From: an uncultured Bacilli bacterium
GTDB lineage: Bacteria; Bacillota_I; Bacilli_A; RF39; UBA660
Assembly (NCBI GenBank): GCA_944331945.1
Contig: CALVJC010000068.1
Coordinates: forward strand, 1 to 37,238
Reading direction: 5' to 3'
Length of the DNA: 37,238 nt
Position numbers and translations under genes: made by a program. Under the pieces are notes generated by a model that worked only from the letters and a program-made list of their open reading frames with translations, searched no databases and had not been told where the DNA came from. Positions 5,290-33,600 of the stretch are shown in pieces (the stretch's first letter is position 1; every line of letters begins with the position of its first letter).

Positions 5290-5320
5290 AAACTAAAAAG
5301 CATCTTTTTGAGGATGCTTT
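5290..5320 (-). terminator. Rho-independent terminator of rpsD
   Basis: On the minus strand: AAAGCATC-loop-GATGCTTT, followed by TTTTAGTTTT. The stem overlaps the rpsD stop codon. Confidence 0.65.
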
Positions 5321-8604: not shown

Positions 8605-9465
8605 ATGATGGAACAAAATAAAAAAGAAAAGGACTGGTTTGATAGTCCCAATATTGTAACCTATGTGATCATTGGTTTGTTAATTATTCTTATTCTTGCT
8701 TCGCAATCTTTTGCAATTCAAAATCGATTAAGTTTTGGAGAGATTTTTCGTTCTATTATTAATCATAATGCGATTTATTTCATTACTTTAATTTATTTTG
8801 TTTTGTTGCGATTTAAGATAGGGAAAAAGTATTTTGATTATTTGAATGTTTTAATGGCTATTTTATATTTGCTTTTATCTTTTGCGTCCGTATTTACGAT
8901 TTTTCAATCTTTTGGACTAGCTTCTTTGCTTAATCTAGCTTTAACTGTTGTTCTTACTCTTTATTTTATTTATGCTTTTATTTGTAATACTGTGATTGGA
9001 AAAGAATTGAAAATTTCCAATACTCCTTTAAATGAAATCAAGAATCAACAATATTTTTCCATTATTTGTGTTCTTCTTGCTCTTATTTTGGTTGTTGATT
9101 TGATTGCTGCAACAGATTTTGAAGGGGTAGTTATTTCGTTATTAGAAGTGATGTATCAAGTTCTTTTCGCTCGTTATATCTATTTATATAAAGAGTATTC
9201 GGATACAAAAGCGAAGAGGAGAAAGGAAAGTTTAAAACAGGAAGAGGTTGTAGAAGAGAAAGAAGAGCCTGTTATGGAAAAAGAAGAAAAGACTAATGTA
9301 GAAGAAGCTCCAAAAGAAGAAAAAACGGAAAAAATAACAGAAGTTAAAATAGAAGTTGAAGAGACAAAAGTAGAAGAAGGAAAGCAAGAGGAAGAAAAAG
9401 AAGAACCGAAAAAGCCAAGAACGAGAAAAAAGAAAGAAGAAGATAAGGGAGATGAAGTGAAGTGA
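8605..9465 (+). CDS. Polytopic membrane protein with a C-terminal Glu/Lys-rich disordered tail
   Basis: Five to six hydrophobic helices, then ~90 aa of E/K low complexity (KEEPVMEKEEKTNVEEAPKEEKTEK...). SD GGTGGTGAT. Confidence 0.7.
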   Translation: MMEQNKKEKDWFDSPNIVTYVIIGLLIILILASQSFAIQNRLSFGEIFRSIINHNAIYFITLIYFVLLRFKIGKKYFDYLNVLMAILYLLLSFASVFTIFQSFGLASLLNLALTVVLTLYFIYAFICNTVIGKELKISNTPLNEIKNQQYFSIICVLLALILVVDLIAATDFEGVVISLLEVMYQVLFARYIYLYKEYSDTKAKRRKESLKQEEVVEEKEEPVMEKEEKTNVEEAPKEEKTEKITEVKIEVEETKVEEGKQEEEKEEPKKPRTRKKKEEDKGDEVK

Positions 9466-9806
9466 AAGATTTATTTGATGAAATTGATCAAGAACGAAAA
9501 GAACTTCCTCATTTAAAAAATATCCAAGATGAAGTCCAAAAACCACGTTATCATAACTTTTATCAGAAATTAGCTTTTTGGTTATTTGTTTTTCTCTTTG
9601 GGGTGGGAATTGTTTTAGGAAATTTATTTCCATCTTGTAGTGAAACTTCTAATCTTTTTTCTACCTGTACGAGAACAGAATATAATTTAACTCTTACTGT
9701 GATTAGTTGGTTAATTAGTTTTGTCTTTTGTAGTATGATTTATGCAGTTGGAGAGATTATTAGTTTATTAACCTCTATTAATGAAACATTGAAAAAAAGA
9801 AAATAA
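9462..9806 (+). CDS. Small membrane protein (2-3 TM), unknown function
   Basis: GTG start overlaps the upstream stop (GTGA, 9462-9465). Hydrophobic segments LAFWLFVFLFGVGIVLGNLF and LTVISWLISFVFCSMIYAVGEII. Confidence 0.6.
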   Translation: MKDLFDEIDQERKELPHLKNIQDEVQKPRYHNFYQKLAFWLFVFLFGVGIVLGNLFPSCSETSNLFSTCTRTEYNLTLTVISWLISFVFCSMIYAVGEIISLLTSINETLKKRK

Positions 9807-17619: not shown

Positions 17620-17799
17620 ACAACTACCTCTATTCTAATTTTAGTTTATCATAAACTAGTCTTTTTGAAACGATTTTCTTTCTGATTTTACAGAAAATGT
17701 CATATTTTAAGAGATGGGTTCTCTTTGAAATTAGCTTGAAAAATACTTGTTCTGATGATACTATGGAATTATGAAAAGACTAGAAGAAGGAGAATAGGT

Positions 17800-18186
17800 A
17801 TGGAGTTTATAAAAAAGAATCTTGTTTTGTTTGAACTAGGAAGTTCTGTTTTCATGATTTTAGGGTGTTTCCTTCCTTTTATTACAATTCGCGCAGGTGA
17901 TTTGAGTCAATCTATTCAATTTCTTTCGGGATTAAGTAATGGTATTTTAGTTTTGGTTTTAGCTATTGCTGTTTTGGTTCTGTTCTTATTTCAAAAGCCT
18001 GTTATTGCCTTCATTCTTTCTATTATTATTTTGATTACTACTCTTTATTCTGGAATTTCTACTTTCCAGTTTTATCAGTCTGCGTCAAATCTTTCTGTTT
18101 CTTTTAGTTTTGGTTTTTTCTTTTTGATAGCAGGGTGTATTTTGACTTTTGTTTCTTTTGTGGCTGCCCTTGATCGGAATCGGTAA
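17800..18186 (+). CDS. Small polytopic membrane protein
   Basis: ATG at 17800 follows GAAGGAG. Four hydrophobic helices. The upstream extension to 17755 has no SD. Confidence 0.6.
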   Translation: MEFIKKNLVLFELGSSVFMILGCFLPFITIRAGDLSQSIQFLSGLSNGILVLVLAIAVLVLFLFQKPVIAFILSIIILITTLYSGISTFQFYQSASNLSVSFSFGFFFLIAGCILTFVSFVAALDRNR

Positions 18187-18493
18187 AGATGTATGGATAG
18201 TGTGAAAAATGAAAACTCAAAAAGAAGTAAAAGAAGAAAACTTTAAAATAAGTAAATTAATTAATTAATGAATTATTAAAAAAGATTAAAGGACAAAAAA
18301 GGTAATGATTTTATAGAGTAATTCATTTCTTTTTTATATTATTATAAATTACCAAAATCATTGAAATTAGATAGGTTTTATTGTTTTATCTAATTTTGTT
18401 AAGTTTTAGCATAATAAGAATGAGAAATTTGTTATAAAAATATTGAAGAAAGGGAAGTAGTAATATTATATATGTATAAGGAGAAGTTTGAAT

Positions 18494-19585
18494 ATGTCAC
18501 ATTATAATGCTTATGATAGTTTTAAAACCAAAAAAAGTATAGAAAAAAAACAGCGAGCTAAAGCAAAAGCATTGGGGGAAAAAAGTGAATTAGTAGATGA
18601 TTTTGTTATTAATACTTGTGAAGAATATGGTGTTGCTATAGAAGTTAGATATGATGATGCATATATATTGTACAAAGGAGAAGTAGTGATAGCAAAACTA
18701 AGAAGAGATATTAATTTGGTTTGTAATCAAGTTGTTTTTCCAGGAGATAAAGTTGATGTCGAAAAATCAAATGACACATATATTATTAATCACTTATTAA
18801 AAAGGACTTCAATATTATCAAGAATAAAAAAGGATAGTACCAGATTAAATGATGTAGGGTTAACGAAAAAGATTGCTTCCAATATTGATTTAGCTGTTAT
18901 CGTAGTAGCTGCACAAGAGCCCCCTTTGCATCCGAAATTTATAGATAGATATTTAATGATTCTTCAAAATAGTAATATTCCTGCTGTAATTTGTTTAAAC
19001 AAATGTGATTTGAAAACAGACGAAGATGAAAAAATTTTAGATACATATAGAAATTTGGGAATAGATGTAGTTGAAACTTCCACATATGGTAATATTGGCA
19101 TTGATAATCTAAAAAGCAGATTAATTAATAAGCAAGCAATATTTGTTGGAAATAGTGGTGTTGGCAAATCTTCTCTTACGAATGCTATAATGGGTGATAA
19201 TGAAATAAAAACAAGTCATGTAAGTGATAAAAGTAAACGTGGGAGACATACAACAACTACTTCAAAGTACTATGTATGGGAAGAAAATTCTTCTATTATA
19301 GATACACCAGGTATAAGAAGTTTAGATGTTTCGTCATTTAATCCAATTGAGATTCAAGACTATTTTCCTGAGTTTGAAGGTTGGAGAGATAAATGTAAAT
19401 ATAGTGATTGTATTCATTTTAATGAGCCTTATGATTCTTGTATAGTTAAACAAGGAGTTGCTAATGGATTAATAAATGCAGAACGTTATGAAAGCTATTT
19501 AAGAATAATGAGTGATTTGCTTGGTGAAAAAGATTATGAAGTGATATTGGAAGAAGTAGCTTCAAGAAAACTTCAAAAAAACTAA
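18494..19585 (+). CDS. rsgA: RsgA/YjeQ-family circularly permuted ribosome-biogenesis GTPase (island copy)
   Basis: OB-fold region (VVFPGDKVDV...IINHLLKRTSILSR), G4 LNKCDL, G1 GNSGVGKSSLTNAI, GRHTTT, G3 DTPGIRS, and a C-terminal zinc knuckle CKYSDCIHFNEPYDSC. ATG at 18494 is 10 nt after AAGGAG; the listed TTG at 18488 is too close to the SD. Confidence 0.8.
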   Translation: MSHYNAYDSFKTKKSIEKKQRAKAKALGEKSELVDDFVINTCEEYGVAIEVRYDDAYILYKGEVVIAKLRRDINLVCNQVVFPGDKVDVEKSNDTYIINHLLKRTSILSRIKKDSTRLNDVGLTKKIASNIDLAVIVVAAQEPPLHPKFIDRYLMILQNSNIPAVICLNKCDLKTDEDEKILDTYRNLGIDVVETSTYGNIGIDNLKSRLINKQAIFVGNSGVGKSSLTNAIMGDNEIKTSHVSDKSKRGRHTTTTSKYYVWEENSSIIDTPGIRSLDVSSFNPIEIQDYFPEFEGWRDKCKYSDCIHFNEPYDSCIVKQGVANGLINAERYESYLRIMSDLLGEKDYEVILEEVASRKLQKN

Positions 19586-19670
19586 TTTTCTCTTTGATAA
19601 AGAAGCATGTTATTTTTCCTGGTATAGAATCAATATTTACTCTTTTCATGATTGTAAAAGATTCATGTTT

Positions 19671-20456
19671 TTATAATCTTTGACGATGAGTTAATTTCTC
19701 TGTATTATTTCTTTCGATTTTTCTCATTAATTCTTCACAGGTTTGCTCTGGGTTTTTATTTTTAGTATATAAAGTAATAGTTGCTAACTGTTCATTACAA
19801 GGCACTGATATAAAATGTTTATTATCATTTAATTCTTTTAAAGATACATTTCTTGAAGTAAGTCGATCATTTAATATTTGAATGGATTCTTCTTTATTCT
19901 CGCTTGGTATTATATATACAACATTAGAAAATTTACTTATCAATTTTTGAAATTCAAAAAACATTATAGGATTTTCATAAACGGAATGTCCTGCACCAAA
20001 ATCAATAACAGAAGGTTCTGTTAAATTAGTAAGTATAGAACATGTTAAATAAAATTCGAAATCTTTAAAGTCATTAAAATAATTTCTTTTATCATAAAAA
20101 CTTTTCAATTGTTCTCTATTATCAAGAGAAATTCTTGGCATTTTTAAATTAGTGCTAATCATTTTAGAAAGCGTAGATTTTCCTGTTCCCATTGGTCCTA
20201 TTAATAACACACTATTTTTAATAATATTTTCATCTATATTTTGAGAAACTAATTTTTCCATTAATGATAATTTATGTGCTTGATTAGTTATTTCTTTTTC
20301 AATTTCTTGAATATTTCGCTTATCATTAGCATAGTGTATCTTTACCTGCTCAACATATCGTTTTGGTATATCAGGAAACTTAGCGGATAATAAATCAATA
20401 ATATTATTAGTCTTTTCGTTTTTATTCTGTAAATTATTATAAAATTCCTTGTCCAT
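19671..20456 (-). CDS. Shikimate-kinase-fold P-loop NTPase/kinase with an ~85-aa N-terminal extension
   Basis: Walker A LLIGPMGTGKSTLSKMIS (the GxMGxGKST flavour of the AroK family). ISLDN sits at the DxD position and FGAGHSVYENP at the GGG-lid position. SD GAAGGTG. Confidence 0.6.
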   Translation of the reverse strand: MDKEFYNNLQNKNEKTNNIIDLLSAKFPDIPKRYVEQVKIHYANDKRNIQEIEKEITNQAHKLSLMEKLVSQNIDENIIKNSVLLIGPMGTGKSTLSKMISTNLKMPRISLDNREQLKSFYDKRNYFNDFKDFEFYLTCSILTNLTEPSVIDFGAGHSVYENPIMFFEFQKLISKFSNVVYIIPSENKEESIQILNDRLTSRNVSLKELNDNKHFISVPCNEQLATITLYTKNKNPEQTCEELMRKIERNNTEKLTHRQRL

Positions 20457-20744
20457 ATTGCACCTTCTATATTTTTAATAGTCTATTTGAATTATAACAT
20501 ATAATTAAAAACTTTTTTGTTCAATTTTCATGATTTAGTTAGTGTTTCCAAAGTGTGGAGATTTATGAAAGAAACCTTTACAAAAAAACGATTAAAAACC
20601 TAAAAAGCTTTATAATTGAATTAATGATAAACAATAGAAAGCGGGGTTTTAACTACATGAATATTATACCTTATTAATGAAATTGCTAATCGTTTTAATG
20701 AAAGATTTAAAATTAAGGTTATTATTTTTATTTATAAAAATAGT

Positions 20745-20773
20745 TTTACTTCTCATAAATACCTGTGTATAAT
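20745..20773 (+). promoter_or_regulatory. Putative sigma-A promoter of the HipA-like operon
   Basis: TTTACT (20745-20750), 17 nt, TATAAT (20768-20773). This gives a leader of about 80 nt. Confidence 0.5.
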
Positions 20774-20860
20774 ATATATAAGAATGATTCGTACGGACGT
20801 TCGGTTGAATAATGTAAAAAAATATTATAAAATATATTTAAAATAGGGGGTGGGTCGGTT

Positions 20861-21718
20861 ATGGATAAATATAAAATTTATGAAGAAGGCACTGACTTTA
20901 TTTTCGAGCAAATACAAGATGCTAATACAAAGGGGACAAGAGTAAAAAAGATAGCAATAGATACTTCTTCATATGAAACAGCATATTTTAAATATGAGAT
21001 GTACAATTGTAGCGAATCTTGTTCTGAAAAAATGAGCTATGAAATAGCAAAAGTCTTGGATTATCCATGTGCACATATAGAACTAGCAAGAGATAGAAGA
21101 GGCAATATTGGTATTTTAAATTATTTATTTATCGATAAAGAAAAAGAAGAACATCATGATGCTATTGACTTTATAAATAAAGATGAAAATGAAGCAAAAG
21201 AATATTATACAATTGAAAATATAAAAAAGTGCTTAGATAATATCGATGAAAATTTGTTCGCTGATTTTCTGAAAATAATGGTGTTTGATGCATTAGTTGG
21301 TGAAACAGATCGACATGCTGAAAATTGGGGTATAACAAAAGATAATATCGGTTACAAGTTATCTCCTTTATATGATAATGGAACCAATTTATTAAGAAAT
21401 TTTAAAAATGAAGCATATGCTGAGAAATATTATAGTGGAGTAAGACCATTTGATATATACATAAAAAGGGCAGAATCCCTAATATTTAAAGGTGATCACT
21501 CTAAACAATATAAACTACACGAATTAATACAATACTTATATACAAAATATCCTGAACAAATTGCCCATGAAATTAAAAACCTAGAAAAGCTAACAGCTGA
21601 TAAAATTAGTGAAATTGTAAACAAAATACCAGACGAATTATTGACGGAACAGCATAAAAAGTTTATAATACTCTACCTAAATGAGCGCAAGAAACTACTG
21701 GAAGATATAATAAAATAA
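20861..21718 (+). CDS. HipA-family Ser/Thr kinase, N-terminally short (HipT-like core)
   Basis: Catalytic loop FDALVGETDRHAENWGI (HipA D-x-H-x-x-N), LSPLYDNGT (Mg-binding Asp) and a KGTRVKK loop region. At 285 aa it is much shorter than E. coli HipA (440 aa). SD GGGGGTG. Confidence 0.8.
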   Translation: MDKYKIYEEGTDFIFEQIQDANTKGTRVKKIAIDTSSYETAYFKYEMYNCSESCSEKMSYEIAKVLDYPCAHIELARDRRGNIGILNYLFIDKEKEEHHDAIDFINKDENEAKEYYTIENIKKCLDNIDENLFADFLKIMVFDALVGETDRHAENWGITKDNIGYKLSPLYDNGTNLLRNFKNEAYAEKYYSGVRPFDIYIKRAESLIFKGDHSKQYKLHELIQYLYTKYPEQIAHEIKNLEKLTADKISEIVNKIPDELLTEQHKKFIILYLNERKKLLEDIIK

Positions 21719-21732
21719 AAGAGGGTGATAAT

Positions 21733-22416
21733 ATGTTAGAAAAACTATTGATGATTTGGAAAGCACCAGTCAGTAGAAGAAGATTTATCATTGGGGAATT
21801 ATCAAAAAGTGAAGAAGAGTACTGCTTTAAATATATTAATCCAGAATTAGAAGCAGCTAAAGAAAATGGTTTTAGCTATTTTCCAGGATTTAATGATTTA
21901 AGTAAAACTTATACATCAAATACGTTGTTTAAAAATATTGAAACAAGATTGCCAAATCCATCTAGACCAGATTATTTAGAAATTTTAAATTTATATGATT
22001 TGGAAACAGATTCGAATCAGATGGAGATCTTAAGAGCGACAAAAGGGAGGCTTTTAACAGATAATTTTGAATTTGTACCACCATTTGATAGAAATAAGAT
22101 TGAATTCGATATTGCAGGAACAAGTCATCACTTACTAGATAAAGAAGTGAGAAAAGTATTAAGGGTAAATGATAATTTAGAATTAGAACAAGAACCGGAC
22201 AATAAAGAAGATAGATATGCAATCAAAGTTCTATATGAGTTGGAAGATAAAAAAGTTCTTTTAGGGTATGTTCCCAGATATTATAGCAAAGATCTAACAG
22301 GTTTGTTAGAAAAAGGAACAAAATACTCTGCGAAAATTGAAAGTTTAAAACTAGATAGTGAAATTAGCGATGAAGACGTAACAGCAAGTGTCAAACTTAT
22401 TTTTGAAAACAAATAA
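21733..22416 (+). CDS. Fusion of a HipS-like (HipA N-terminal subdomain) region with a HIRAN domain
   Basis: N-terminus: FIIGELSK..YCFKY..LFKNIETRLPN..EILRATKGRLLTDNFEF parallels HipA VGELTK..HTFKY..FFDNLLPD..LLSEIGRDSVGAV. C-terminus: IAGTSHH..LELEQEPDNKEDRYAIKV..LLGYVPRYYSKDL fits the HIRAN pattern. Starts 14 nt after the kinase gene, with SD AGAGGGTGA. Confidence 0.7.
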   Translation: MLEKLLMIWKAPVSRRRFIIGELSKSEEEYCFKYINPELEAAKENGFSYFPGFNDLSKTYTSNTLFKNIETRLPNPSRPDYLEILNLYDLETDSNQMEILRATKGRLLTDNFEFVPPFDRNKIEFDIAGTSHHLLDKEVRKVLRVNDNLELEQEPDNKEDRYAIKVLYELEDKKVLLGYVPRYYSKDLTGLLEKGTKYSAKIESLKLDSEISDEDVTASVKLIFENK

Positions 22417-22668
22417 TAACAGAGAAACTCTCTCATTCTGATAGTGTAAATAAAGTGTGTAAGTAATGGAAAGACTACACCTTTTTTATATACTCTTTTA
22501 ATAAAAAATCAAATTTCTTCTTCTTTTATTGATTTTATTATATCAGTCAGTAGTTGCTAGGTCAAAAAGAGACATAATCAACTTAAAGTTTACCTAGATC
22601 AATCGAAGAAGTTATGTTATTATAAGTTTGTGAAAAATAAGCAAAGAAAATTTAATGGGGAGAGGAAA

Positions 22669-22705
22669 CAAAAAAACGATTTCTCTTTGATAAGAAAAAT
22701 CGGTT
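22669..22705 (-). terminator. Probable terminator of tRNA-Trp
   Basis: Minus strand, just after the CCA end: CGATTT-14 nt loop-AAATCG followed by TTTTTTT. The stem is short. Confidence 0.45.
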
Positions 22706-22713
22706 ATTTTTCA

Positions 22714-22787
22714 TGGCAGGGGATGAGAGAATCGAACTCCCAACAAAAGTTTTGGAGACTCCTATTATACCATTTAACTAATCCCCT
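22714..22787 (-). tRNA. trnW: tRNA-Trp (anticodon CCA), CCA end encoded
   Basis: Reverse complement reads AGGGGAT-TA-GTTA-AATGGTA-TAAT-A-GGAGT-CTCCAAA-ACTTT-TGTT-GGGAG-TTCGATT-CTCTC-ATCCCCT-G-CCA. This is a full cloverleaf with a 7-bp acceptor stem, a TTCGATT T-loop, anticodon loop CT-CCA-AA and discriminator G. Confidence 0.9.
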
Positions 22788-22867: not shown

Positions 22868-23299
22868 ATGACGAATTTATTATCTTATACAAGTAAAGAA
22901 TTGGATTTGTTAGCTAGACTTATGCGTGCTGAGGCAGTTGGTGAAGGGGAATATGGTATGTTGATGGTAGGAAATGTAGGAGTGAATCGGGTTTTGACGA
23001 ATTGTTATACTTTTCGTAATATTAAAACAATTACGCAGATGGTTTATCAAAATCCTGGTGGGTTTGCAGGAATTAATAGTTCGCTTTTTGCCTCTGGTTC
23101 CACAATCAAAGAACGTGAGTTGGCGCAGAGAGTTTTAAGTGGGGAATATTATTATCCTGCTACGAATGCTCTTTGGTTTTATGCTCCTAGTGGTAGTGCT
23201 TCTTGTATTGCTACTTGGTATGATCAAGCTTTGGCTGGGCGCTTTAAAAATCATTGCTTTTATGAGCCAGATCCTGGAATTTGTCCCCCTCTTCATTAG
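22868..23299 (+). CDS. cwlJ: Spore cortex-lytic / cell wall hydrolase CwlJ (SleB/CwlJ family)
   Basis: DLLARLMRAEAVGEGEYGMLMVGNVGVNRV ... WFYAP ... RFKNHCFYEP closely parallels B. subtilis CwlJ (DLMARLLRAEAEGEGKQGMLLVGNVGINRL ... RFKSHCFYQP). 143 aa, SD AGGTGA. Confidence 0.8.
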   Translation: MTNLLSYTSKELDLLARLMRAEAVGEGEYGMLMVGNVGVNRVLTNCYTFRNIKTITQMVYQNPGGFAGINSSLFASGSTIKERELAQRVLSGEYYYPATNALWFYAPSGSASCIATWYDQALAGRFKNHCFYEPDPGICPPLH

Positions 23300-23336
23300 A
23301 AGGCCTTTGCTTATTAGAAGATATAAGGAGAGAATT

Positions 23337-24341
23337 ATGGAATTTATCGAAACAATTAAGGATAGAGTACGTCATTTAAAAAGAAAAAGAATTGTATTAC
23401 CAGAAACGGATGATATTCGGGTTTTAAAGGCGGCTAGTATCGTTTTAAAAGAAGATTTTGCAGATATTATTTTAATTGGGAAAAAGGAAGAAATTTTGTC
23501 TATTTCTAAACAAGAGAACCTTGATTTGGAGTCTTGTTCTTTTGTGGATCCCGAGACTTTTTTCGATAGAGAACTTTTGATTGATCATTATTATGAACTA
23601 CGAAAGCATAAAAATATTACTCATGAGGAAGCAGAAAAAGCTTTACTTGATTATCCTACCTTTGGTGCTATGCTTGTTCGTCTTGGTTATGCGGATGGAA
23701 TGGTTAGTGGGGCTGTTCATTCGAGTGCGGATACCTTGCGCGTTGCTTTACAGATTATTAAGACTTCAAAGATTCAAACGGCTTCTTCTTTCTTTTTGAT
23801 GGTTACACCGCGGGTAGAATATGGAAGTGATGGGGTTTTTGTTTATTCTGATTGTGGAATGAATCAGAATCCTACTAGTGAACAACTTGTGGATATTGCT
23901 TATAGTAGTGCGGAAACATTCCGCTTGTTAGTGGAAAAAGAACCTAAGATCGCGTTTTTATCGCATTCTACTTATGGTTCTTCGAAATGCTCTGATCAAG
24001 AGAAAGTGGTACGGGCGGTTGCTTTGGCGAAAGAGAAATATCCTGATCTTTGTCTTGATGGAGAATTACAATTTGATGCGGCCATCATGGAAGAAGTTAG
24101 AGAGAAGAAAGCGCCAGGTAGTCCATTAAAGGGGAGTGCTAATGTTTTGATTTTCCCTGATTTGGATGCAGGAAATATTGCTTATAAAATTACCGAACGG
24201 TTAGGTCTTGCGAAAGCCTATGGTCCTATTACACAAGGGTTAGCGAAGCCAATCAATGATTTATCAAGAGGATGTAACGAATTTGATATTGTGGGTGCCA
24301 TTGCTATTACGGCTTTACAAGCGGAAGAAGTAGATTCATGA
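23337..24341 (+). CDS. pta: Phosphate acetyltransferase
   Basis: 334 aa from the ATG behind AAGGAGAG. Short-form Pta pattern: RIVLPE.DD.RVLKAA, GYADGMVSGAVHSSADTLR, PDLDAGNIAYK, and DLSRGC near the C-terminus. The listed ORF start at 23139 is an in-frame read-through overlapping cwlJ. Confidence 0.9.
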   Translation: MEFIETIKDRVRHLKRKRIVLPETDDIRVLKAASIVLKEDFADIILIGKKEEILSISKQENLDLESCSFVDPETFFDRELLIDHYYELRKHKNITHEEAEKALLDYPTFGAMLVRLGYADGMVSGAVHSSADTLRVALQIIKTSKIQTASSFFLMVTPRVEYGSDGVFVYSDCGMNQNPTSEQLVDIAYSSAETFRLLVEKEPKIAFLSHSTYGSSKCSDQEKVVRAVALAKEKYPDLCLDGELQFDAAIMEEVREKKAPGSPLKGSANVLIFPDLDAGNIAYKITERLGLAKAYGPITQGLAKPINDLSRGCNEFDIVGAIAITALQAEEVDS

Positions 24342-25225
24342 TTTTAAATGTTAGTGGTCGTACGGATATTGTTGCTTTTTATAGCGAATGGTTTTTTCGA
24401 CGAATGGAGGAGGGGTATCTTGATGTGAGAAATCCCTTTTATCCAAAGCAAGTAAGTCGAATCTTTTTTTCTTGTGTGGATGCGATTGTTTTTTGTACGA
24501 AGAATCCAATCCCTTTGTTACCTTATCTTGATAAAATTACGATTCCTTATGTGTTACAAGTTACTTTAACGGGATACAAAAGAGATATTGAACCTTTTGT
24601 GCCAGATAAGAAAAAAGTAATAGAAGCGATTAAGAAGATCAGTGAGAAAATAGGGAAAGAGAATGTTTATCTTCGTTATGATCCTATTTTCTTAAATAAA
24701 AAGTATACCTTGTCTTATCATATTCGAGCATTCGAAAAGTTAGCATCTTTGCTTTCTTCTTCGGTGTCTTGTGTTATTATTTCTTTTTTAGATGATTATA
24801 AGAACGTACGAGAGCATCAAAGTGATTTGCAAGTAATTCCTTTTGCGGAAGAGGATTATAAGACGTTAGGTCTTTCTTTTTCATCGATTGCCAAGAAGTA
24901 TGGGATGACGATTCAAACTTGTGCGGAAGAGAAAAATTTAGCTTGCTATGGCTTTCAGATAGGAAGTTGTGTGGATGCTTTTTTGGCTTATCGTTTAACC
25001 GGGAAAACGAAGTGGAAAAAATGGAGTGCCAGAAAGAATTCTTTTTGTCATTGTGTTCAGATGACGGATGTAGGGGTTTATAATACTTGTAGACATTTTT
25101 GTCGTTATTGCTATGCTAATTATGATGAGAAAAAAGTACGAGAGAATCAAGAGAAACATATTCCTTCTTCTTCTTGTTTAATTGGTACGGTAGAGGAAGA
25201 AGATATTGTTAAAGTTTGGAAATAA
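24338..25225 (+). CDS. DUF1848-family protein (Cys-rich C-terminus)
   Basis: N-terminus ILNVSGRTDIVAFYSEWFFRRMEEGYLDVRNPFYPKQVSRI is typical of DUF1848. C-terminal cluster CHC...CRHFCRYCYA. ATGA overlap with the pta stop. Confidence 0.65.
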   Translation: MILNVSGRTDIVAFYSEWFFRRMEEGYLDVRNPFYPKQVSRIFFSCVDAIVFCTKNPIPLLPYLDKITIPYVLQVTLTGYKRDIEPFVPDKKKVIEAIKKISEKIGKENVYLRYDPIFLNKKYTLSYHIRAFEKLASLLSSSVSCVIISFLDDYKNVREHQSDLQVIPFAEEDYKTLGLSFSSIAKKYGMTIQTCAEEKNLACYGFQIGSCVDAFLAYRLTGKTKWKKWSARKNSFCHCVQMTDVGVYNTCRHFCRYCYANYDEKKVRENQEKHIPSSSCLIGTVEEEDIVKVWK

Positions 25226-25304
25226 ACTTGTCTATCTTTGTCAAATTTTCTCTTTTTTTATCATTTTCTCTTTTCTCCTTTTTTTCTTTCCTATATAATT
25301 AATA

Positions 25305-25335
25305 GTACGCCTCTAAAAAAAGAGGGGTACTTTTT
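25305..25335 (+). terminator. Rho-independent terminator of the pta-DUF1848 unit
   Basis: GTACGCCTC (25305-25313) pairs with GAGGGGTAC (25322-25330), 9 bp with one mismatch, then TTTTT. Confidence 0.6.
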
Positions 25336-25350
25336 CTTGGAGATGATGAA

Positions 25351-26481
25351 ATGATTAATAGTAATAAACAGAATGAAAAAGCTTATACCGTGACAATTGT
25401 TTCTAGTAAAAAGAAAAGCCGGAAATTATATTTTATTCCTATTTTGATAGTTCTTTTCTTTTTCTTAGTAACAATTAATTATTTTACGAATCAATTACAA
25501 AGCAAAAAGATATTTGCTGAAAGTGTAGAGAAATTATCCACAGAAATTGTGGATATTTTTTCCCTTGATGAAGGGAGTATTTCTTCTTCTTTTTCCTTTC
25601 AGTTTGATGTTTCTATTGCTTCGAAATTAAAGGAAGAAAAGCCAGCTTTTTTACCATATTATCAATTGATTGAGAATCTTTCTCAGTTTCAATATCTTTT
25701 TCAAATGACAGAGAACAATACAAGTAAAAATTTAAATTTCATGGGATTTAAAGAGGGGGAAGAGCGTTTTGCTTTTCAATCTAGTTATCAAAATCAACAT
25801 CTTTATTTTTCTTTTGCTCCTTTTACTTCTTCGATTATAGATTATGGTGTTATTCCTTCTTTTATTACGAATCTATCTTCTTTTAAAACAGTGCTTACTC
25901 AAAAGTATTTGAGTGAGGAAGAAGGTGTTTTTTCTTCCTCTTCTCAAAAACAAAAACGTCTTCGTCTTAGCTTTTCCAAAGAAGAATTAGAAGAGTTTTC
26001 TCCTTTTCTTGCTTCGCTTCTTAGTTCTTATTTTGATCTAGAAACATTAGCGGTTCAGGTTTATTTGAATCCGGTTACGGAAGAAGCAGAAATGCTTGAG
26101 GTCTTGTTAAAAGATACAAAAGGACAAATTCTTTCGTTTGGTTATCGTGATTCTACCTTTGTTTTTATGAGAGAGGGGCAAGTTCTTTATCATCTTTCTT
26201 ATGAAAAAAGAGAAGGGGAAGTGCTGTTTACTTTAACCAATAAAAAAGAAAATACCCTTGCTTCTCTTTCTCTTAAGAAAGGGATAGGGTATTCTCTTAC
26301 CTTTGTTGGTTTTGAAAATCAAAAGGAAGTTTTCCGTCTTTCAGGAAGTTTTGAAAAGATAGAGGTAGTGCCTCGTTCTTTTGAGGTTACTTCTTCTGTT
26401 CCATGGGATCAAGTAAGAGATTCTGTTTTACAAACGATGAAAAAAACATTTTATTCTTACTTATATCAAATGGATTTCTAA
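25351..26481 (+). CDS. Membrane-anchored hypothetical protein
   Basis: 376-aa ORF with one N-terminal TM helix (LYFIPILIVLFFFLVTINYF) and a Ser/Phe-rich body. No known motif. Confidence 0.55.
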   Translation: MINSNKQNEKAYTVTIVSSKKKSRKLYFIPILIVLFFFLVTINYFTNQLQSKKIFAESVEKLSTEIVDIFSLDEGSISSSFSFQFDVSIASKLKEEKPAFLPYYQLIENLSQFQYLFQMTENNTSKNLNFMGFKEGEERFAFQSSYQNQHLYFSFAPFTSSIIDYGVIPSFITNLSSFKTVLTQKYLSEEEGVFSSSSQKQKRLRLSFSKEELEEFSPFLASLLSSYFDLETLAVQVYLNPVTEEAEMLEVLLKDTKGQILSFGYRDSTFVFMREGQVLYHLSYEKREGEVLFTLTNKKENTLASLSLKKGIGYSLTFVGFENQKEVFRLSGSFEKIEVVPRSFEVTSSVPWDQVRDSVLQTMKKTFYSYLYQMDF

Positions 26482-27645
26482 ATCAGGATTTTCTTTCAGA
26501 GATTGGGTGAGTTTTTTCTTGTAAATTTCTACTCCATTTTGATTGTAGTATGGTACCTCTAAAAGGTATGATCCCATCATAGTAGAAAGGTAGAAAAAGA
26601 AGATTAGATAACCCATGTTCCATTCATTTTTTTCATCCATCGTGATTCGAATATTTGGAATATTATTTTCTAAATGTGAGTTACAAATACTTTCTTCTAG
26701 TTTTTCTTCTAAGAAGTTAAAATCTTTGTTTTTTTGGATCGCTCTAATGTGGGTTTCAAAGCAAAGGGATGGTCCTTCTTGTAAGTATTGTCCTAGGGAG
26801 TGAAGATCTCTACTATAAACAAGAGAGATAGGGAAGAGTCCTTTTCCTTCTTTTCCTTCCGATTCGGCCAAGAGTTGTTTGAGCCATTCGGTGAAGTAAG
26901 ATAGTTTTTCATCATAGATGGTGAAGGCTTCTAGACTTTTTCCTTCTTGATAAAATTTGTGGCGAAGAAAGGCGTAGGTATAAGCCTTTTCTTCGTCTTT
27001 TTTTGCTTGTTTGGCTCCTTCTAGTAGAGATTTTATATCAAGTCCTGCTACTTCAAGGGGAAGAAGTCCTACGGTTGATAAAACAGAGAAGCGACCCCCA
27101 ATATCTTCTTCAATGGTAAAGCGTTTGATTTGATATTGGTTTGAGAACTCATATAATTGTCCTTTTTGTTGATTAGTAGTAATTATGATTCTTTCGTTCC
27201 ATTTTTCCTGATATTTTTCTTTTAAAAGGGGAAGAAGTTCTTTTAAAGTGAGGATCGTTTCAAGGGTATTTCCAGACTTTGAAATGACATTTAGAATGAT
27301 TTCTTTTTCTTTTAAATAGTCTTTTAATTCCTCTAAGGAGTCTCTAGGAATGGTTGTTCCGGTAAAAATGATTTCTGGTGTTTCCTTTTGATAAGGATTT
27401 CGCATCGCTTCATAAAGAGCTTTGGCTCCAAGGAAGGAACCGCCAATTCCGATGACGAGGAAAATATCGCAGTTCTTTTTGATCTCTTGTGCTGTTGTTT
27501 CTATTTCAGTTAAGTTTTTTTCTTGGCGCTCTAAATCATACCATCCTTTCATGTTGTCTTCTTCTAAGAATGTTTTTTTGATTTTTTCTTTTTTCTTTTG
27601 CTCTTCGCTATTTAGACTATAGTGATGAAAGTCAAATGTTATCAT
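26461..27645 (-). CDS. pgi: Glucose-6-phosphate isomerase (short form)
   Basis: SIS/PGI motifs IGIGGSFLGAKALYEAM, ISKSGNTLET, GGRFSVLSTVGLLP and ESEGKEGKG. ATG overlaps the stop of the upstream giant gene (ATGA) and follows GGGAGGA. Confidence 0.85.
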   Translation of the reverse strand: MITFDFHHYSLNSEEQKKKEKIKKTFLEEDNMKGWYDLERQEKNLTEIETTAQEIKKNCDIFLVIGIGGSFLGAKALYEAMRNPYQKETPEIIFTGTTIPRDSLEELKDYLKEKEIILNVISKSGNTLETILTLKELLPLLKEKYQEKWNERIIITTNQQKGQLYEFSNQYQIKRFTIEEDIGGRFSVLSTVGLLPLEVAGLDIKSLLEGAKQAKKDEEKAYTYAFLRHKFYQEGKSLEAFTIYDEKLSYFTEWLKQLLAESEGKEGKGLFPISLVYSRDLHSLGQYLQEGPSLCFETHIRAIQKNKDFNFLEEKLEESICNSHLENNIPNIRITMDEKNEWNMGYLIFFFYLSTMMGSYLLEVPYYNQNGVEIYKKKLTQSLKENPDLEIHLI

Positions 27646-30600
27646 ATTTTTCCTCCCTTGATTTCAATCGAATGCGTTTTTTTATCATTACTTAACGGAA
27701 TGTCGTTCTTGATTTCTTGTTGGTCTAAAGTAATTTTGGTTGTTTTGCTTTGCTGAAAGGTAATTTCATAAGTTGTATCTTTATAATGATAGGTTAAGTG
27801 ATAGCTTTGGAATGGAATCTTATCTATGTCGAAATGGAGGGTTTTTCCATATTTGCGGAAGCCGAGAAGTTCTTCGATTCCTACTTTATAGAACCATGCG
27901 CTACTACCGGTATACCAAGTCCAACCACCTTTGGCATAGAAAATCTTATGGGTGTAGATGTCAGCAGGAATGACATAAGGTTCTACTTGATAGATTTGGC
28001 AGTCTTCTTTGTTCATGGTATGAGAGATTGGATTTAACATAGTGAAGACATTTAGGGCTTCTTCTTTTTGGCGAAGATGAGAAAGCGCCATAATATACCA
28101 AGCGACAGCATGCGTATATTGACCTCCATTTTCTCTTAGACCTTGAGCATAGTTTTGAATATAGCCAATATCGTGCCAATTTTGAGTAAATGGTGGGGTT
28201 AGAAGTTTTACTAAGCCATGTTTGGTATCAACTAATTTTTCTTCGACGGCTTCTAAGATTGTTGGTATTTGTTCTTCGGTAGCGATATCGGTTAAGATAG
28301 CAAAGCTTTGAGAAATCAGATCGATTTGGCATTCTTGACTATCCATGCCTCCTATTTTGGTACCATCATCGGCGATGGCTCTTAGATAATAGGTTTTGTC
28401 CCAACCATTTTTTAAGAGGGCTTCTTTTAGATCTTGTTGTTGTTTTTGATAAGTTTCTACTTCCTCTAGATTTGTTTTTTGACAAAGTTTGATGTAACGA
28501 GATAATACTTCATAAAGGAAGAATCCTAACCAAATACTGGTTCCTTTTCCTTTGATTCCGATATGGTTCATACCATCGTTCCAGTCTCCACCTCCCATGA
28601 GAGGGAGTCCGTTTTCGCCCATTTCCTTTTTAGTTTTTTGCATAATGATCTTTAAGTGTTCTTTTAAAGGCCATTTTTCTTCTGTATAGTAGTATTCCAT
28701 TCCGCGTTCTTCTTCGTGTTCTTCTAATAGTGGTCCGACGACAAAAGGAATTGGTTCTTCTAAAATACTGGTATCATTTGTTTTTTCTATATATTCATAA
28801 GTTGCATAGACTAACCATAAGTAGTCGTCTTTGAAGCGAGAACGAAGTCCAAAGCGACTTGTTTCATGCCACCAATGTAAGACATCTCCTTCTCTAAATT
28901 GATGCATAGCACAGTTGATAATTTGCTTTTTGGCATATTCTTGATGGGTGGTAGCAATGTTCATACAGTCTTGTAATTGATCGCGGAATCCAAAGGCTCC
29001 TCCGACTTGATAGAAACCAGAACGTGCTAGAATACGGCAGGCAAGTGATTGATATAAGTACCAACCATTCATCATATAATTGAAGCGATTGTCTTCTGTT
29101 TCTATGGTGATTTTACCTAATTCTTTTTCCCAATGTTCTTTGGTTTGCTTCTCTAATTTTATGGCTTCTTCTACTGTTGTGATTTCAAAAGGATCTTGAT
29201 TTTCTTTGCAACCAAGGAAGAATGCTATCGTTTTTTGTTCTTTGGCTTTTCCTTTGACTTTTATGGTAATTCCTTTGATGACTGGTTGATCGATAAAGGA
29301 GATAATTGGTTCGGTTGCTTTTAAATATACGATATTGTCTCGGAATTGTTTGGTATAACCATTTTGAATTAAGAGAGCATTTTGATTTTGGTCAAAAGTA
29401 GTGATTAAATGGCGGATGGTTGTATCTTCGCTTTCTCCTAGAACTGGATTCATAAAGTAGGTTAGGTTGAATTCTTGATCTTGTTCAAAGGTAATGGTTA
29501 AGAGATTTACTTTTACCTTTTTCTCTTTTGGAACAAAGATGGTGTTCTTGAAGAAATTTTCTTTGGTTTTGGTTTCGAAGATACTATAGCCAAATCCATG
29601 CGTACACTTGCTAAAATCAATTCGAATGTTATCTTGGAAGAATCCTTCCGATGGATCATCTAGCATGGTGTCATTGGTCCAGGTGGTGAGTTTGTATTCT
29701 TTGCTATTAAAGGCATAAGTGAAGCCATTGTTGGTGTTGGTAATGACGGTACCAAAGTTTTCACTAGCTAAGACATTGCTCCAAGGCATAGGGGTGTTCC
29801 GATTATAGATGACGTATTCTTTTCCATTGTTTTGAAAGCCGCCAAATCCATTGTCAAATTCTAGTTTTGGTTTTTCTATTGGTAGATATTCTAAAGATTT
29901 GCCTTCTTCTTTTTTCTTGGCTTTGTTTTGGACTTGTAAAGAGTCAATATAATCTTTTAGGGAGTGTGTTTTTTTGGTATCAAAGTATAGTCTTGCAATG
30001 CCACGAAGTAAGTTTCGTTCTTCTTCGGTGATTTCATTTGCTTCGATGACTTTGATCATTCCTTTATAAGAAGCGGGATCTTGATAAGAATAGATATAGA
30101 ATAATTCATTTTGAATGACTTCTTTGATCATGCTGGCATGTTCTTCGTCTTTACTGTTTAAAAGAATCATATCCACATAGATACCTCTATTTTTATAATA
30201 TTCGAACATTTTTAAGAGTTCTTTGGTCAAGCCAAGAGAGGTTAAATCGTCAATTTCTACTAAGATGATGGGAATATCTCCAGAAATACCAAAGCGCCAT
30301 AAGTTTTGTTGTGATAGGCGATTGTTTAATAAATAGTCTCTTCTTTCTTGAGATAGGTTGATTTTCGTCGTTTGATAGAGATAATTTAAGGCTTTGTTGT
30401 AACGATTGACATCTTCCGAATTGACGCCTAGTTGTTTGATCATTTTATCCGTGGTTAAGGTGACCATGCGGAAGGCATCTTGAATTTCTTCTTCGTTTTG
30501 ATAGTCTTTTAATATCTCTAAGATTTGTTGTTTACTAGTACCAAAACCATTTAAGATATAGACGGTTTTCTTTTCTCCTGCTAGTAAGGTGATTTTATTT

Positions 30601-33600
30601 CTGATGGAAGCGATCGGATCTAAGTTATCCCCCGTATAATTGGTAAGTGATTTTAAAAGACCACTTGGATTACTATAACTATCATTTCGAGTTAAGAAGT
30701 TTGAACGTTCGGTTTCATAAGTATTTGGTTCTTTAAATTCTTTGCTCCAAAGTTTATGAACAAAGTAGTAGTTATTTTTGTTTCGTTCTTTTCGTTCGAA
30801 AATGAGCGCTTTTCCTTCTTCGCTATATTCTGAGGTTAAGAACATACTATTGAATACTCGATGACTGATATCATTGCGGTTGTTACAAACGATTGGTTCG
30901 GTATAAGTGGTAAGTTCTAGGGTATGAGGTGTTTCACCTAAGTTTTTAAAGGTGATTTTGCGAATTTCGGCATTGTGTTTTTGGGTTACGATAATTTCGG
31001 TGTTGGTTACAATCTCCTGATCAAGTCGTTGATATTTTAAGCGGTCAAGGGCAAAAGTTACTTCGTAACGATCGGGTGTTTTGTTTACTGGGGCATAGGT
31101 GTTTGACCAAATGTTATCGTTTTCTTTCATATAGAGATAGCAGCCATAATCTTGTTCTGATATTTTACGATAACGATTTAATTGAATGTCTTTATAACGA
31201 CTAAATCCATTTCCTTTTTCATTCATTAAAATCATATATCTCGCATTGGATAGAGCGGATACTTCAGGATATTCTTGAATTTCCCGGTAGATTCTAACGT
31301 CGTTTTCAAGGGGTTCTTTCCGATATTCTTGGGCTTTATAATGTCTTATTTTCATGTCAATCATAGGCTTGATTTGTAATTTTTCTTTATTTAAGATGTC
31401 AAAAGCTTCGATTTGAATATCATGCTGAAAATATTTTTGAATGGTTTGATTAGCTAGATAGTTGGCAAGACTTGTTAGGATCATACCTTGATGATGGGCG
31501 AAATAGGCATAAACGATTTCTTGATCATCTATGTCATAGGATTCATAGCATCCAAGTTCTCCAACCATATTGATTTTTTTCCATTTTTGATAGTTCTTAT
31601 AAACTTCTTCTGGATTTTTCGTAAGGGCAATAAAAGAAGCATAAGGACTAATGACTTTTCGATCGGTATCAATGCTTTGAAATTTTAAATAAGGAGTTCC
31701 AAAGGCTTTATATTTGTAATTTTTGGCATCATCTAGAACATTGTATGCTGCTTCACTGATTCCCCAAGGAAGATTTGGAGCGATTTCTTTTTGATATTCT
31801 TTTTGACAATACATGGCAAAGTAATAGCTTTCATCAATTAAGGTATTCGGGTAATCATTCATGAATAAAAGAGGCATATAGTATTCGAAAGAAGTTCCAG
31901 ACCATGAAAGAAGTCCTTTATATTGATGAAATTTGGTTAAGGACTTATCAAGAGCGAACCAGTGTTTATAGGAAACATCTCCTTTGGCAATGGCAATATA
32001 GCTCGTTAGTCTTGATTCACTTGCGAATTTGTCATAATGATACGGTGATTTTTTCTCTTCTAGACTGTCATAACCTACGGTAAAAGTATTTGTTTGCTTA
32101 CTGAATAATTTACTAAAGTCTGCTTTTTTGATTAGTATTTCACAACGCTTTTCAAAGGCTTCTTCTTGTTCTTCTTGATAAAGTTCTTTTAAAACGATAA
32201 GGCTAGCGATGAAGTTTCCACTGTCGATGGTCGATATATAATAAGGAAACATTGGTTCTTTGGTTTTGATATTGTACCAGTTATATAGATGACCATTCCA
32301 TTTTTTTAGTTCTTCTACGGTTGTTAAAATATTATCAAGAAGGGTAAAGGCTCTTTTTCTTGAGATGATTTGTAATTTATAAGCTGATATAATGGCAAGA
32401 ATTGAAAAACTAATATCAGTGGCAGAAGTTTTGATATCGTAAACTTCTTCTCTATTTTTTTGATAATTGTCTGGTATTAAGTAGTTATTTTCTTTGGTTA
32501 GGGCTTGATCAAAGTATTTCCAAGTTTTTTTGGCTAATTCAAATAAGTCTTCTTGATTTTTCTTTGAGAGAGAGATGGTTCTCTCTGTTACTGGTTGTCC
32601 CATGAGATAGAAATAAAGAGGACTTGCTAAGAAGACAATGGAAATCATCAAAACAGCAAAGATATTGACGGGATTTAACCAAAGGACTAAGAGAAGCAGA
32701 AGAATACAAAACCAATAATTACTTTGGAATTTGATCAAGTAGGTATCTAGGGTATTATTGGTGTTATTGGCCGCTTCTTCTGAGGTAACCCAACTAAGAA
32801 GTTTTTTGTGGCTAAAGTACATGCGCCAGATGGATCTTAGAAAAGCATCGAGATATAATTTGGCATGGTAAGGAAGAGAAGAAAAGTCAGCGACAATTTT
32901 TAAGACAATAGATTGTAGTCCGACAATGGTGTTCTGGTATTGTTTGGTTTTGGTGGACCGTTTGTTTTGCGATTTTATTTTTTCAAAGATGAAAAAGAGA
33001 ATTGGTATTAATAAAATAAAGATAACAAAGAGGATCCAAAAATGAGGGGCAGTAGGACTAATGGTGTAAGCTAAAACGATAATAAGAAGTAAGAAGAAAG
33101 GTAAAAGTCCTCGTCTGATATTATCGATAAATTTAAAGCGATGAATGCTATTTAAAGGATTTTTTTTGAAAGCCCAAGATAGTATTTGCATGTCACCTCT
33201 TGCCCAACGATGTTGTCTTTTGGAATCAACTAAGAAGTCACTTGGAAAATCATCGTAAACATCAACATCGGAAACATAACCACACCGAGTATAACTTCCT
33301 TCTAATAAGTCATGGCTTAAGATTCGGTTTTTCGGGAAATGATTGTTTAAAATGACTTCGTTAAATACGGCTAAGTCATAGATGCCTTTGCCATAGAAAT
33401 TACTTTCTTGAAAAACGTCTTGATAAAGATCGGGTACGACACTGGAATAAACATCATATCCTCCTAAACCGGCGAAGGTTTGAGAGTAGGTTGATTGATT
33501 TTCTAAAGAAAGATCAAAGGTTACTTTTGGTTGCATCATACCATAACCTTGAATGACTTTGGTTCTTTCCTTATTTAGTACTGGTTGATTCATCGGATGA

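Follow-up and report, generated by a model that had tools for sequence, protein, structure and literature searches.

The contig analysed here, 37,238 nucleotides (nt) from an uncultured Bacilli bacterium and referred to throughout as the window, carries four protein-coding genes in the space between a small membrane gene and a gene for tRNA-Trp. Read from left to right, they encode a member of the RsgA/YjeQ family of 30S-assembly GTPases (rsgA), an orphan P-loop kinase, a kinase of the HipA family (hipI) and a protein with a HIRAN domain (hipN), and it is the origin of this group of genes, called the island for convenience, that concerns us. An initial annotation, made from the sequence alone, had placed four genes between the stop of the membrane gene (18186) and the end of the tRNA; open reading frames (ORFs), Pfam and ARAGORN bear this out, and all four reading frames are intact. 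Since the tRNA gene lies on the minus strand, its CCA end and its terminator face the island. From left to right the spacers between the genes measure 307, 85, 404, 14 and 297 bp; the three long ones have a GC content of 19-26% and exceed every other spacer in the window (the next being 265 and 237 bp). The long AT-rich spacers had been put at about 300, 400 and 250 bp, which is right for the first two and too short for the third. The features of the region are collected in Table 1.

Table 1. Features between the membrane gene and the cell-wall hydrolase gene, in window coordinates.
Feature	Position	Strand	Description
Left-flank membrane gene	17755-18186	+	143 amino acids (aa), small multi-pass; ORF, no Pfam match
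AT-rich spacer	18187-18412		Matches no fetched locus; part of the 19%-GC spacer 18187-18493; looks like a cassette junction
rsgA cassette	18413-19585	+	About 80 bp of upstream region plus gene; ATG at 18494, ribosome-binding site AAGGAG
rsgA	18488/18494-19585	+	Pfam RsgA_GTPase 6.5e-51
Left repeat copy	19574-19622		Overlaps the rsgA stop; decayed terminator and CCA end
P-loop kinase gene	19671-20456	-	Pfam SKI 6.4e-06, 26.8 bits (cut-off 22.1)
AT-rich spacer	20457-20763		Unique to the contig; contains a 13-nt match to the right repeat copy; looks like a cassette junction
hipIN cassette	20764-22439	+	About 97 bp of promoter region, hipI, 14-bp gap, hipN, 23 bp of 3' sequence
hipI	20861-21718	+	Pfam HipA_C 2.7e-11
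hipN	21733-22416	+	Pfam HIRAN 2.6e-12
Spacer	22440-22576		Unique to the contig; looks like a cassette junction
Block X	22577-22668	+	Non-coding, common only to L106; no Rfam match
Right repeat copy	22669-22716		Intrinsic terminator of tRNA-Trp and encoded CCA
tRNA-Trp (CCA anticodon)	22714-22787	-	ARAGORN; Rfam 60 bits; anchor of the variable site
Right-flank cell-wall hydrolase gene (Hydrolase_2)	22868-23299	+	Pfam 5.8e-15; pta next; core, syntenic

The composition of the island differs from that of its surroundings. The background for these statistics was the one 37-kb contig, with its 31 genes and 328 sliding windows of 4.5 kb. When the contig is scanned in this way, as the initial annotation had suggested, the island, with 26.5% GC against 32.9% in the remaining contig, is the minimum among all sliding windows, and its four genes have a GC content at third codon positions (GC3) of 0.14-0.19 against 0.252 +/- 0.046, which places them among the six lowest of the 31 genes (Mann-Whitney p 9e-4). 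The distinct codon usage that had been noticed by eye is equally plain when counted: arginine is encoded by AGA in 36 of 49 codons in the island (73%) and in 134 of 371 elsewhere (36%; p 8e-7), alanine by GCA or GCT in 93% against 60%, and threonine by ACA or ACT in 84% against 48%, while NCG codons make up 6.3% against 15%. Two further genes of the window (5319-5921 and 9462-9806) have an equally low GC3, and the neighbouring run from the hydrolase gene through pta (22868-26481), which holds the GC-richest genes of the window and is apparently shifted to higher GC, exceeds the island in codon deviation by the G-test. That the island lacks an integrase also held: no integrase or recombinase domain was found by Pfam in the four island and four flanking proteins, and tblastn of a relative's integrase against the window returned only matches with E >= 0.9. 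An Rfam scan of the island matched the tRNA and nothing else, and the window holds no decayed NUDIX, SRA-HNH, helicase, radical-SAM or integrase genes, the companions that the genes of the island have elsewhere.

The nearest organism, sought by scanning species-representative genomes with the Pta protein, is Candidatus Onthousia faecigallinarum, a member of an uncultured Bacilli genus, whose Pta is 76% identical. At its locus (L001; numbers of this kind denote comparison loci and contigs from relatives) and at the metagenome twin of that locus (L026), both flanks of the region are kept: on the left a gene for a 187-aa protein, a DUF3048 gene and a poorly conserved membrane gene, and on the right tRNA-Trp, the hydrolase gene, pta and the next genes. 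The membrane gene excepted, the flanking genes are 74-93% identical between the window and these loci, the hydrolase being 93% identical in amino acids. The slot between the membrane gene and tRNA-Trp holds four genes unrelated to those of the window, which encode an ABC exporter and three proteins of 191, 80 and 643 aa without a Pfam domain. The initial annotation had proposed checking whether the junction is empty in close relatives; its content does differ, but in the closest species it is not empty. The membrane gene of the window is only 27% identical to its positional counterpart (L001:3835-4218), against 74-93% for its neighbours, so that the variable zone may start at about 17660 rather than at 18187. 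In a more distant group (L028-L032) a mere 76-94 bp, which hold nothing else, separate the DUF3048 gene from the hydrolase gene.

In L001, L034, L035, L037 and L038, too, the hydrolase gene has tRNA-Trp directly upstream of it, and in L034 and similar loci a classical island is found at this tRNA. In L034 the island (L034:1897-7683, 5.7 kb) has a tyrosine integrase gene adjoining the tRNA (Pfam 2.6e-28). It also encodes a C5 cytosine methylase, an SDH-type ClpP-like protease and what is probably an endonuclease, and at its ends stand the two copies, 5.7 kb apart, of a 42/43-nt direct repeat that corresponds to the 3' part of the tRNA. Because the closest species fills the slot differently and L034 has an integrase island in it, the slot is a true hotspot of insertion within this clade. 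Loci with the closest homologues of the window's cargo have 26.2-27.5% GC and a GC3 of 0.10-0.19, which resembles the island and not its host. The variable slot, the island of L034 and this resemblance in composition together support the earlier proposal that a variable site beside the tRNA holds horizontally acquired cargo, which here has no mobility gene.

The rsgA product is of the long form, 363 aa, scores 207 bits against TIGR00157 (cut-off 100) and aligns over its full length with RsgA of Salmonella. It shares with RsgA, YjeQ and YloQ an N-terminal OB region, a circularly permuted GTPase domain, in which the motifs follow in the order G4 (NKCD), G1 (GNSGVGKS) and G3 (DTPG), and a C-terminal zinc finger with the motif C-x4-C-x-H-x7-C, as read in the translation (CKYSDCIHFNEPYDSC). 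It scores nearer to the enterobacterial proteins than to those of Bacillus and Staphylococcus: against solved relatives it reaches 155 and 152 bits with Salmonella and E. coli, 128 with YloQ of B. subtilis and 99 with RsgA of S. aureus. The gene is intact and under purifying selection, and its metagenome homologues form more than 120 clusters at 72-96% identity. Unlike the usual housekeeping gene, it stands at a variable site and is 97% identical, at the nucleotide level, to a copy in a differently organised genome.

That copy lies on a metagenome contig of 2.4 kb, L106. The match covers 18413-19581 at 96.8% nt identity, with 97.4% for the coding sequence and 96.5% at third codon positions. 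In L106 the order is the end of a radical-SAM gene, rsgA, about 120 bp of the contig's own sequence, a block like block X (window 22577-22713), tRNA-Trp, a tRNA remnant and the start of the hydrolase gene; some 280 bp separate rsgA from the tRNA-Trp 3' end, and the SKI-like kinase gene and hipIN are absent. To the right of rsgA the sequence common to the window and L106 is no more than 71-89% identical; to its left the two are unrelated, a radical-SAM cluster in L106 standing against DUF3048 and a membrane gene in the window and L001. A gene that is 97% identical amid unrelated sequence on its left and diverged sequence on its right is best read as a recent transfer into the lineage of the window. 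The tRNA-Trp of L106 (1837-1910, within L106:1837-2143) is intact but different from that of the window, and the N-terminus of the hydrolase differs at three of 12 residues, at which the window agrees with L001. About 180 bp from the intact tRNA gene of L106, and adjoining the hydrolase gene, is a truncated tRNA-Trp, the 5' 50 nt of the gene, 88% identical to the window's; the arrangement points to a replacement or recombination event within the tRNA gene itself.

The radical-SAM gene of L106 belongs to a recognisable neighbourhood. In L018-L021 and L025, rsgA is preceded by genes for an ornithine/arginine decarboxylase, a PALP enzyme, an ATP-grasp protein, an arginase, a second ATP-grasp protein and a radical-SAM protein, of which L106 shows the end; the cluster looks like one for the biosynthesis of a small molecule. 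Across three lineages rsgA comes last, behind this conserved cluster (L018:169-9104, L025:1488-9119 and L106:1-1555), and the downstream side is variable, with a NUDIX gene and a type I restriction-modification system or with an integrase element. Between L018 and L025 the RsgA proteins are 89% identical and the products of the cluster neighbours 90-96%; the gene diverges in step with its neighbours and is thus resident in that lineage of 26-27% GC.

The second gene encodes a protein of 261 aa, in which a helical N-terminal extension of about 80 aa precedes a nucleoside monophosphate (NMP) kinase fold like that of shikimate kinases; an AlphaFold2 model of extension and fold has a mean predicted local distance difference test (pLDDT) score of 91.8. 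In Foldseek its best matches, of moderate quality, are shikimate kinases (E ~1e-5, template modelling scores 0.62-0.72), followed by gluconokinase and Fap7, and its matches to viral folds are generic; by sequence it has no close solved relative. A family alignment gives GPMGxGKS, LDxR, FKxFE and DFGAGHS as invariant motifs. With the shikimate kinases AroK and AroL it shares the fold and has counterparts, by position, of their Walker A motif, substrate aspartate and lid arginine; it differs in the extra N-terminal domain and in its setting, for no aro genes lie near it and its relatives elsewhere are cargo of mobile elements. When the family alignment is compared by eye with the M. tuberculosis shikimate-kinase motifs, GAGHS presumably takes the place of the GGG loop of shikimate kinases and a lysine that of the substrate arginine. 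A true shikimate kinase (aroK) was considered and rejected because the protein fails all shikimate-kinase equivalog cut-offs of NCBIfam (the best score was 23.6 bits against a cut-off of 186) and the substrate motifs are presumably altered. We infer that the protein is a small-molecule or nucleotide kinase. Its gene is 75% identical in nucleotides (62-66% in amino acids) to genes of L107-109 and L014, where it lies downstream of a NUDIX gene; the element around it in L014 also encodes a large serine recombinase, a Mob_Pre relaxase and a transposase. More distant homologues occur in miscellaneous accessory contexts with no rsgA nearby.

The last two genes form a pair. HipI, 285 aa, has no counterpart of roughly the first 150 residues of E. 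coli HipA and so lacks N-subdomain-1. It keeps the residues that align with the catalytic and Mg-binding motifs of E. coli HipA, which read GATDGHAKN and TPFYD in the E. coli protein; D150, H152, N155 and D172 are invariant across 15 HipI proteins and E. coli HipA, and K24, G25, R27 and K29 of the loop NTKGTRVKK, beside which threonine residues stand, are nearly so. Its best solved relative is CtkA of H. pylori (6e-9). HipN, 227 aa, consists of an N-terminal domain of about 120 aa and a HIRAN domain at residues 123-207. Among phage families, HipI matches phrog_8728 (5e-34), HipN matches phrog_8026 (5e-44), and both match the fused, 547-aa family phrog_26212. A promoter-like site, TTTACT-17-TATAAT, precedes hipI at 20745-20773. 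The unit of 20764-22439 is 92.2% identical to L110-L112 over 1687 bp, where the pair is followed by an SRA-HNH gene of the ScoMcrA type and a NUDIX gene, and 78% identical to L113 and L114, where a gene for an AEP-TOTE/DEAD helicase comes next; the 14-bp gap between hipI and hipN is conserved in all of L110-L114. In L113 (L113:10001-15771), from another relative of low GC, hipIN lies on the 3' side of a tRNA-Trp gene, with the helicase gene between them and DUF3048 beyond the tRNA, and upstream is a gene for an Apyc1-like metallo-beta-lactamase of the anti-Pycsar family.

Pairs of this kind have been described. In the Hip Tree, hipIN modules, composed of the kinase HipI and of HipN, form main clade XI (Gerdes, Baerentsen & Brodersen 2021, PMC8262856); HipI proteins there range from 279 to 321 aa, three of the four described HipI subclades are in Firmicutes, and the N-terminal domain of HipN is said to be HipS-like, that is, homologous to HipA N-subdomain-1. 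The window pair agrees with this description in its short core kinase without N-subdomain-1, its intact catalytic and Mg-binding motifs, the gene 14 bp downstream with an N-terminal domain followed by a HIRAN domain at the C-terminus, and its Firmicute host. PADLOC assigns the two proteins to PDC-M03, a pair of HipA and HIRAN proteins (PMC13245101, PMC11706625) and, like all PDC systems, a candidate proposed solely from genomic association: HipI matches PDC-M03A at 1.5e-66 (residues 16-284) and HipN matches PDC-M03B at 7.7e-65 (residues 3-224), both near full length, adjacent and in the expected order. Relatives of the pair stand in defence-like neighbourhoods, as the SRA-HNH (type IV restriction), AEP-TOTE/DEAD helicase and Apyc1-like genes show, and the diDNase gene that often joins the actinobacterial pair (PMC11706625) is absent from the window. 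HipI is a putative toxin, a predicted Ser/Thr kinase of the HipA family, and HipN a putative antitoxin and sensor. The earlier labels of a kinase of the type that targets aminoacyl-tRNA synthetases and of a DNA-end binder were drawn from family membership, HipA_C and HIRAN, and overstate what it conveys.

Taken together, the comparisons dissolve the island into parts. In all other loci examined rsgA, the P-loop kinase gene and hipIN are apart and have unrelated neighbours; hipI and hipN, with their conserved spacing, are the only pair that travels together and make up an autonomous unit. Since each of the three cassettes has closest relatives and neighbours of its own elsewhere, the region is a mosaic and not the single four-gene island of the initial annotation, and the conserved block of four genes for which it had suggested a search was not seen in the other loci examined. 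NUDIX genes adjoin relatives of all three cassettes (L014:6770-7309, L107:137-670, L018:9123-9518 and L110:3284-3670), those of L014 and L107 being 98% identical. A shared system marked by these recurrent neighbours was considered and rejected: the NUDIX proteins are 28-37% identical between contexts, and the window has none. In phage and plasmid collections the best matches of HipI, to a C. difficile phage and Vibrio elements, do not exceed 32% identity, plasmids of cyanobacteria and Priestia give 28-35% for the SKI-like protein, and for RsgA the highest value is 36%; viral contigs held no relatives of HipI, RsgA or the P-loop kinase, and an exact-protein look-up returned no record identical to HipI or to the hydrolase.

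The boundaries of the cassettes leave traces in the non-coding sequence. A 49-nt imperfect direct repeat, which the initial annotation had missed, joins 19574-19622 to 22669-22716. The two copies align with a score of 53, whereas 769 control windows taken from the contig score 28 at best. The right copy contains the tRNA-Trp terminator hairpin (22677-22702) and folds (-11.5 kcal/mol, z -3.6), and the left copy no longer does so (-2.5 kcal/mol, z +1.5). The left copy begins in the last codons of rsgA, and its first 17 nt or so are native rsgA 3' sequence, common to L106, L025 and L018. The repeat brackets the P-loop kinase gene, hipIN and block X, an arrangement that fits a history in which rsgA once abutted the terminator and an insertion of about 3.1 kb then duplicated the terminator and CCA end. 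A 13-nt exact match to the start of the right copy at 20581-20593 is of borderline significance. The three spacers that match no fetched locus (18187-18412, 20457-20763 and 22440-22576) look like the junctions between cassettes.

Over its first 62 nt or so block X matches L106 at about 90% identity, amid diverged sequence, and the whole match of 236 nt, which reaches into the tRNA, is 71% identical. At 22577-22645 the block looks like a plus-strand promoter (TAGATC/TTGATC-17-TATTAT) directed at the tRNA terminator, which is bidirectional; by its sequence, a transcript of about 90 nt could start from it. Of the sigma-70-like sites in the region the best, TTGACC-17-TATAAT plus a TG (11 of 12 positions), lies on the minus strand at 22565-22537 and points antisense into hipN; overlapping it, the 30 nt of 22529-22558 are 83% complementary to the hipI stop and hipN start (21690-21719). 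Promoter-like sites number 40 in the region against 35.5 +/- 6.2 in shuffled sequences, and since this is no enrichment, the scan cannot define transcription units.

On this evidence we think it probable that the 3' flank of tRNA-Trp is a recombination hotspot and that at least three separately acquired cassettes, rsgA, the P-loop kinase gene and hipIN, have come to rest there, with hipIN working in the way its family suggests. Foreign cassettes would accumulate and be exchanged at this flank in an uncultured gut Bacilli lineage, all of them bearing the composition of relatives of lower GC (26-27%). The rsgA cassette is probably a recent arrival from a lineage whose rsgA normally stands after the ornithine-decarboxylase/ATP-grasp/radical-SAM cluster. 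The P-loop kinase gene, elsewhere cargo of a mobilisable element, would then be a separate acquisition, and it and hipIN would have been inserted between rsgA and the tRNA, leaving a decayed duplicate of the terminator and CCA end at the rsgA stop. The integrase seen in relatives may have been lost here, or may never have been needed if the cargo came in by homologous recombination through the conserved tRNA and flank. Of the four products, only HipI and HipN would work together. By family inference, following the description and the model of PMC8262856, HipI would be a toxin, a Ser/Thr kinase whose phosphorylation of an essential component of translation arrests growth; the N-terminal domain of HipN would keep it inactive, and the HIRAN domain would sense free DNA ends, for example those of phage DNA, and release the kinase, with abortive infection or addiction as the outcome.

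Several observations weigh against this interpretation. Low GC3 is a weak argument for the transfer of rsgA, since the gene is among those of lowest GC3 also in L022 and L025, where it is seemingly resident, and L106 is a single metagenome contig of low coverage that is possibly chimeric. Block X is 71-90% identical to L106 and rsgA 97%, a discrepancy that does not fix the order of events. Further tRNA-derived repeats were sought at the left edge of the island and in the spacers, and none turned up beyond the 49-nt pair and the borderline 13-nt match, so that no att-type repeat marks that edge; the repeat that does exist holds only the CCA of the tRNA and the sequence downstream of it, unlike the attachment (att) sites of classical integrases. 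Plasmid and phage collections, which essentially lack the cassettes, yielded no vector. That the N-terminal domain of HipN is HipS-like is not confirmed: Pfam gave no match even at E <= 10, the hhalign probability against HipA is 0.2, and the Smith-Waterman score against HipA residues 1-115, 32, was matched by 274 of 2000 shuffles. By eye, GEL(S/T)K...FKY.PE of HipN lines up with HipA residues 12-36, a resemblance that is not statistically significant, and a single-sequence AlphaFold model of HipN (pLDDT 34.5) is uninformative on the fold. For hipIN modules, no toxicity, target, neutralisation or defence phenotype has been reported for any member, and neither a HipI target nor a HipN ligand has been determined (PMC8262856); a literature search found no experimental paper on phage protection by PDC-M03.

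Perhaps only the SKI-like gene and hipIN (about 19623-22668) were inserted, and rsgA is a vertically inherited housekeeping gene that has long stood beside tRNA-Trp, as it does in L106. We consider this unlikely, though it accounts for a good deal: the direct repeat brackets exactly the three genes on the kinase side, L106 has rsgA near tRNA-Trp and the hydrolase gene without them, and rsgA is intact, is under purifying selection, has many homologues at 72-86% identity, as a conserved resident gene would, and shows its low GC3 in lineages where it is resident. It leaves unexplained why the closest species has no rsgA in the syntenic slot, why the gene's 97% identity to L106 drops to 71-89% in the adjacent sequence, beside a wholly different left flank, and why the left spacer (18187-18412) matches no fetched locus.

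It is very improbable that the region is ancestral and that weak expression, with relaxed selection in a genome of AT bias, accounts for its low GC. The two other genes as AT-rich at third positions, the gene run that deviates more by the G-test and the lack of a mobility gene and of clean att sites would all sit well with such a history; the slot is nevertheless filled differently in the closest species, nucleotide matches of 92-97% in foreign contexts are incompatible with long vertical residence, and the duplicated terminator is the scar of a rearrangement. That the four genes form one functional system, the stress switch or translation shutdown of the initial annotation, is scarcely credible and already largely refuted by the comparative data, for although the genes are adjacent, have a common composition and could each conceivably be linked to translation or nucleotide chemistry, and although the P-loop kinase has a fold match to Fap7, an ATPase that acts in small-subunit assembly, that match reflects no more than the generic NMP-kinase fold, the units stand apart with unrelated neighbours in every other locus examined, with only hipI and hipN together, their nearest relatives are 97%, 75% and 92% identical, and within the contig they lie on alternating strands with spacers of 85-404 bp found nowhere else.

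A bolder version of the cassette interpretation deserves mention as a long shot: either the long-form rsgA, promoter and gene, passes between gut Bacilli lineages as cargo in its own right and enters their variable and defence hotspots, or the orphan kinase is a new defence or resistance kinase that modifies a small molecule. The orphan kinase is widespread and travels repeatedly with a NUDIX gene on a mobilisable element. If the former were true, the rsgA cargo may provide a replacement or an extra 30S-maturation factor that counters toxins or drugs directed at translation.

Elsewhere in the window, a T-box leader (Rfam, 111 bits) lies at 694-877, upstream of an ORF that starts at 893, and one ORF of 2528 aa (27642-35228, minus strand) occupies a fifth of the sequence.

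Compared with tRNA-anchored islands in general, the region has much that is familiar, namely its position at a tRNA 3' end, its deviant composition, its differing content in sister taxa and, in relatives, an island with an integrase and restriction-modification at the same tRNA. It departs from them in lacking an integrase and a repeat at its left end, in a repeat that duplicates the terminator and CCA rather than the body of the tRNA and lies at the rsgA stop, and in being composed of separately derived cassettes instead of one element. It is a known kind of variable or defence-type hotspot, a fairly ordinary one, and the hipIN family has already been described; the sole feature out of the routine is a near-identical rsgA cassette in differently organised genomes. 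The 1.68-kb hipIN unit (20764-22439), with its catalytic residues intact, adds a member to the Firmicute hipIN/PDC-M03 family that can be cloned directly for tests of toxin, antitoxin and HIRAN function. For the biology of these small-genome, uncultured gut Bacilli, the locus offers a clean and well-bounded case of a tRNA flank that gains cargo without keeping an integrase, in which natural configurations with and without each cassette (the window, L106, L001, L034 and L113) bound the cassette ends to within a few bases.

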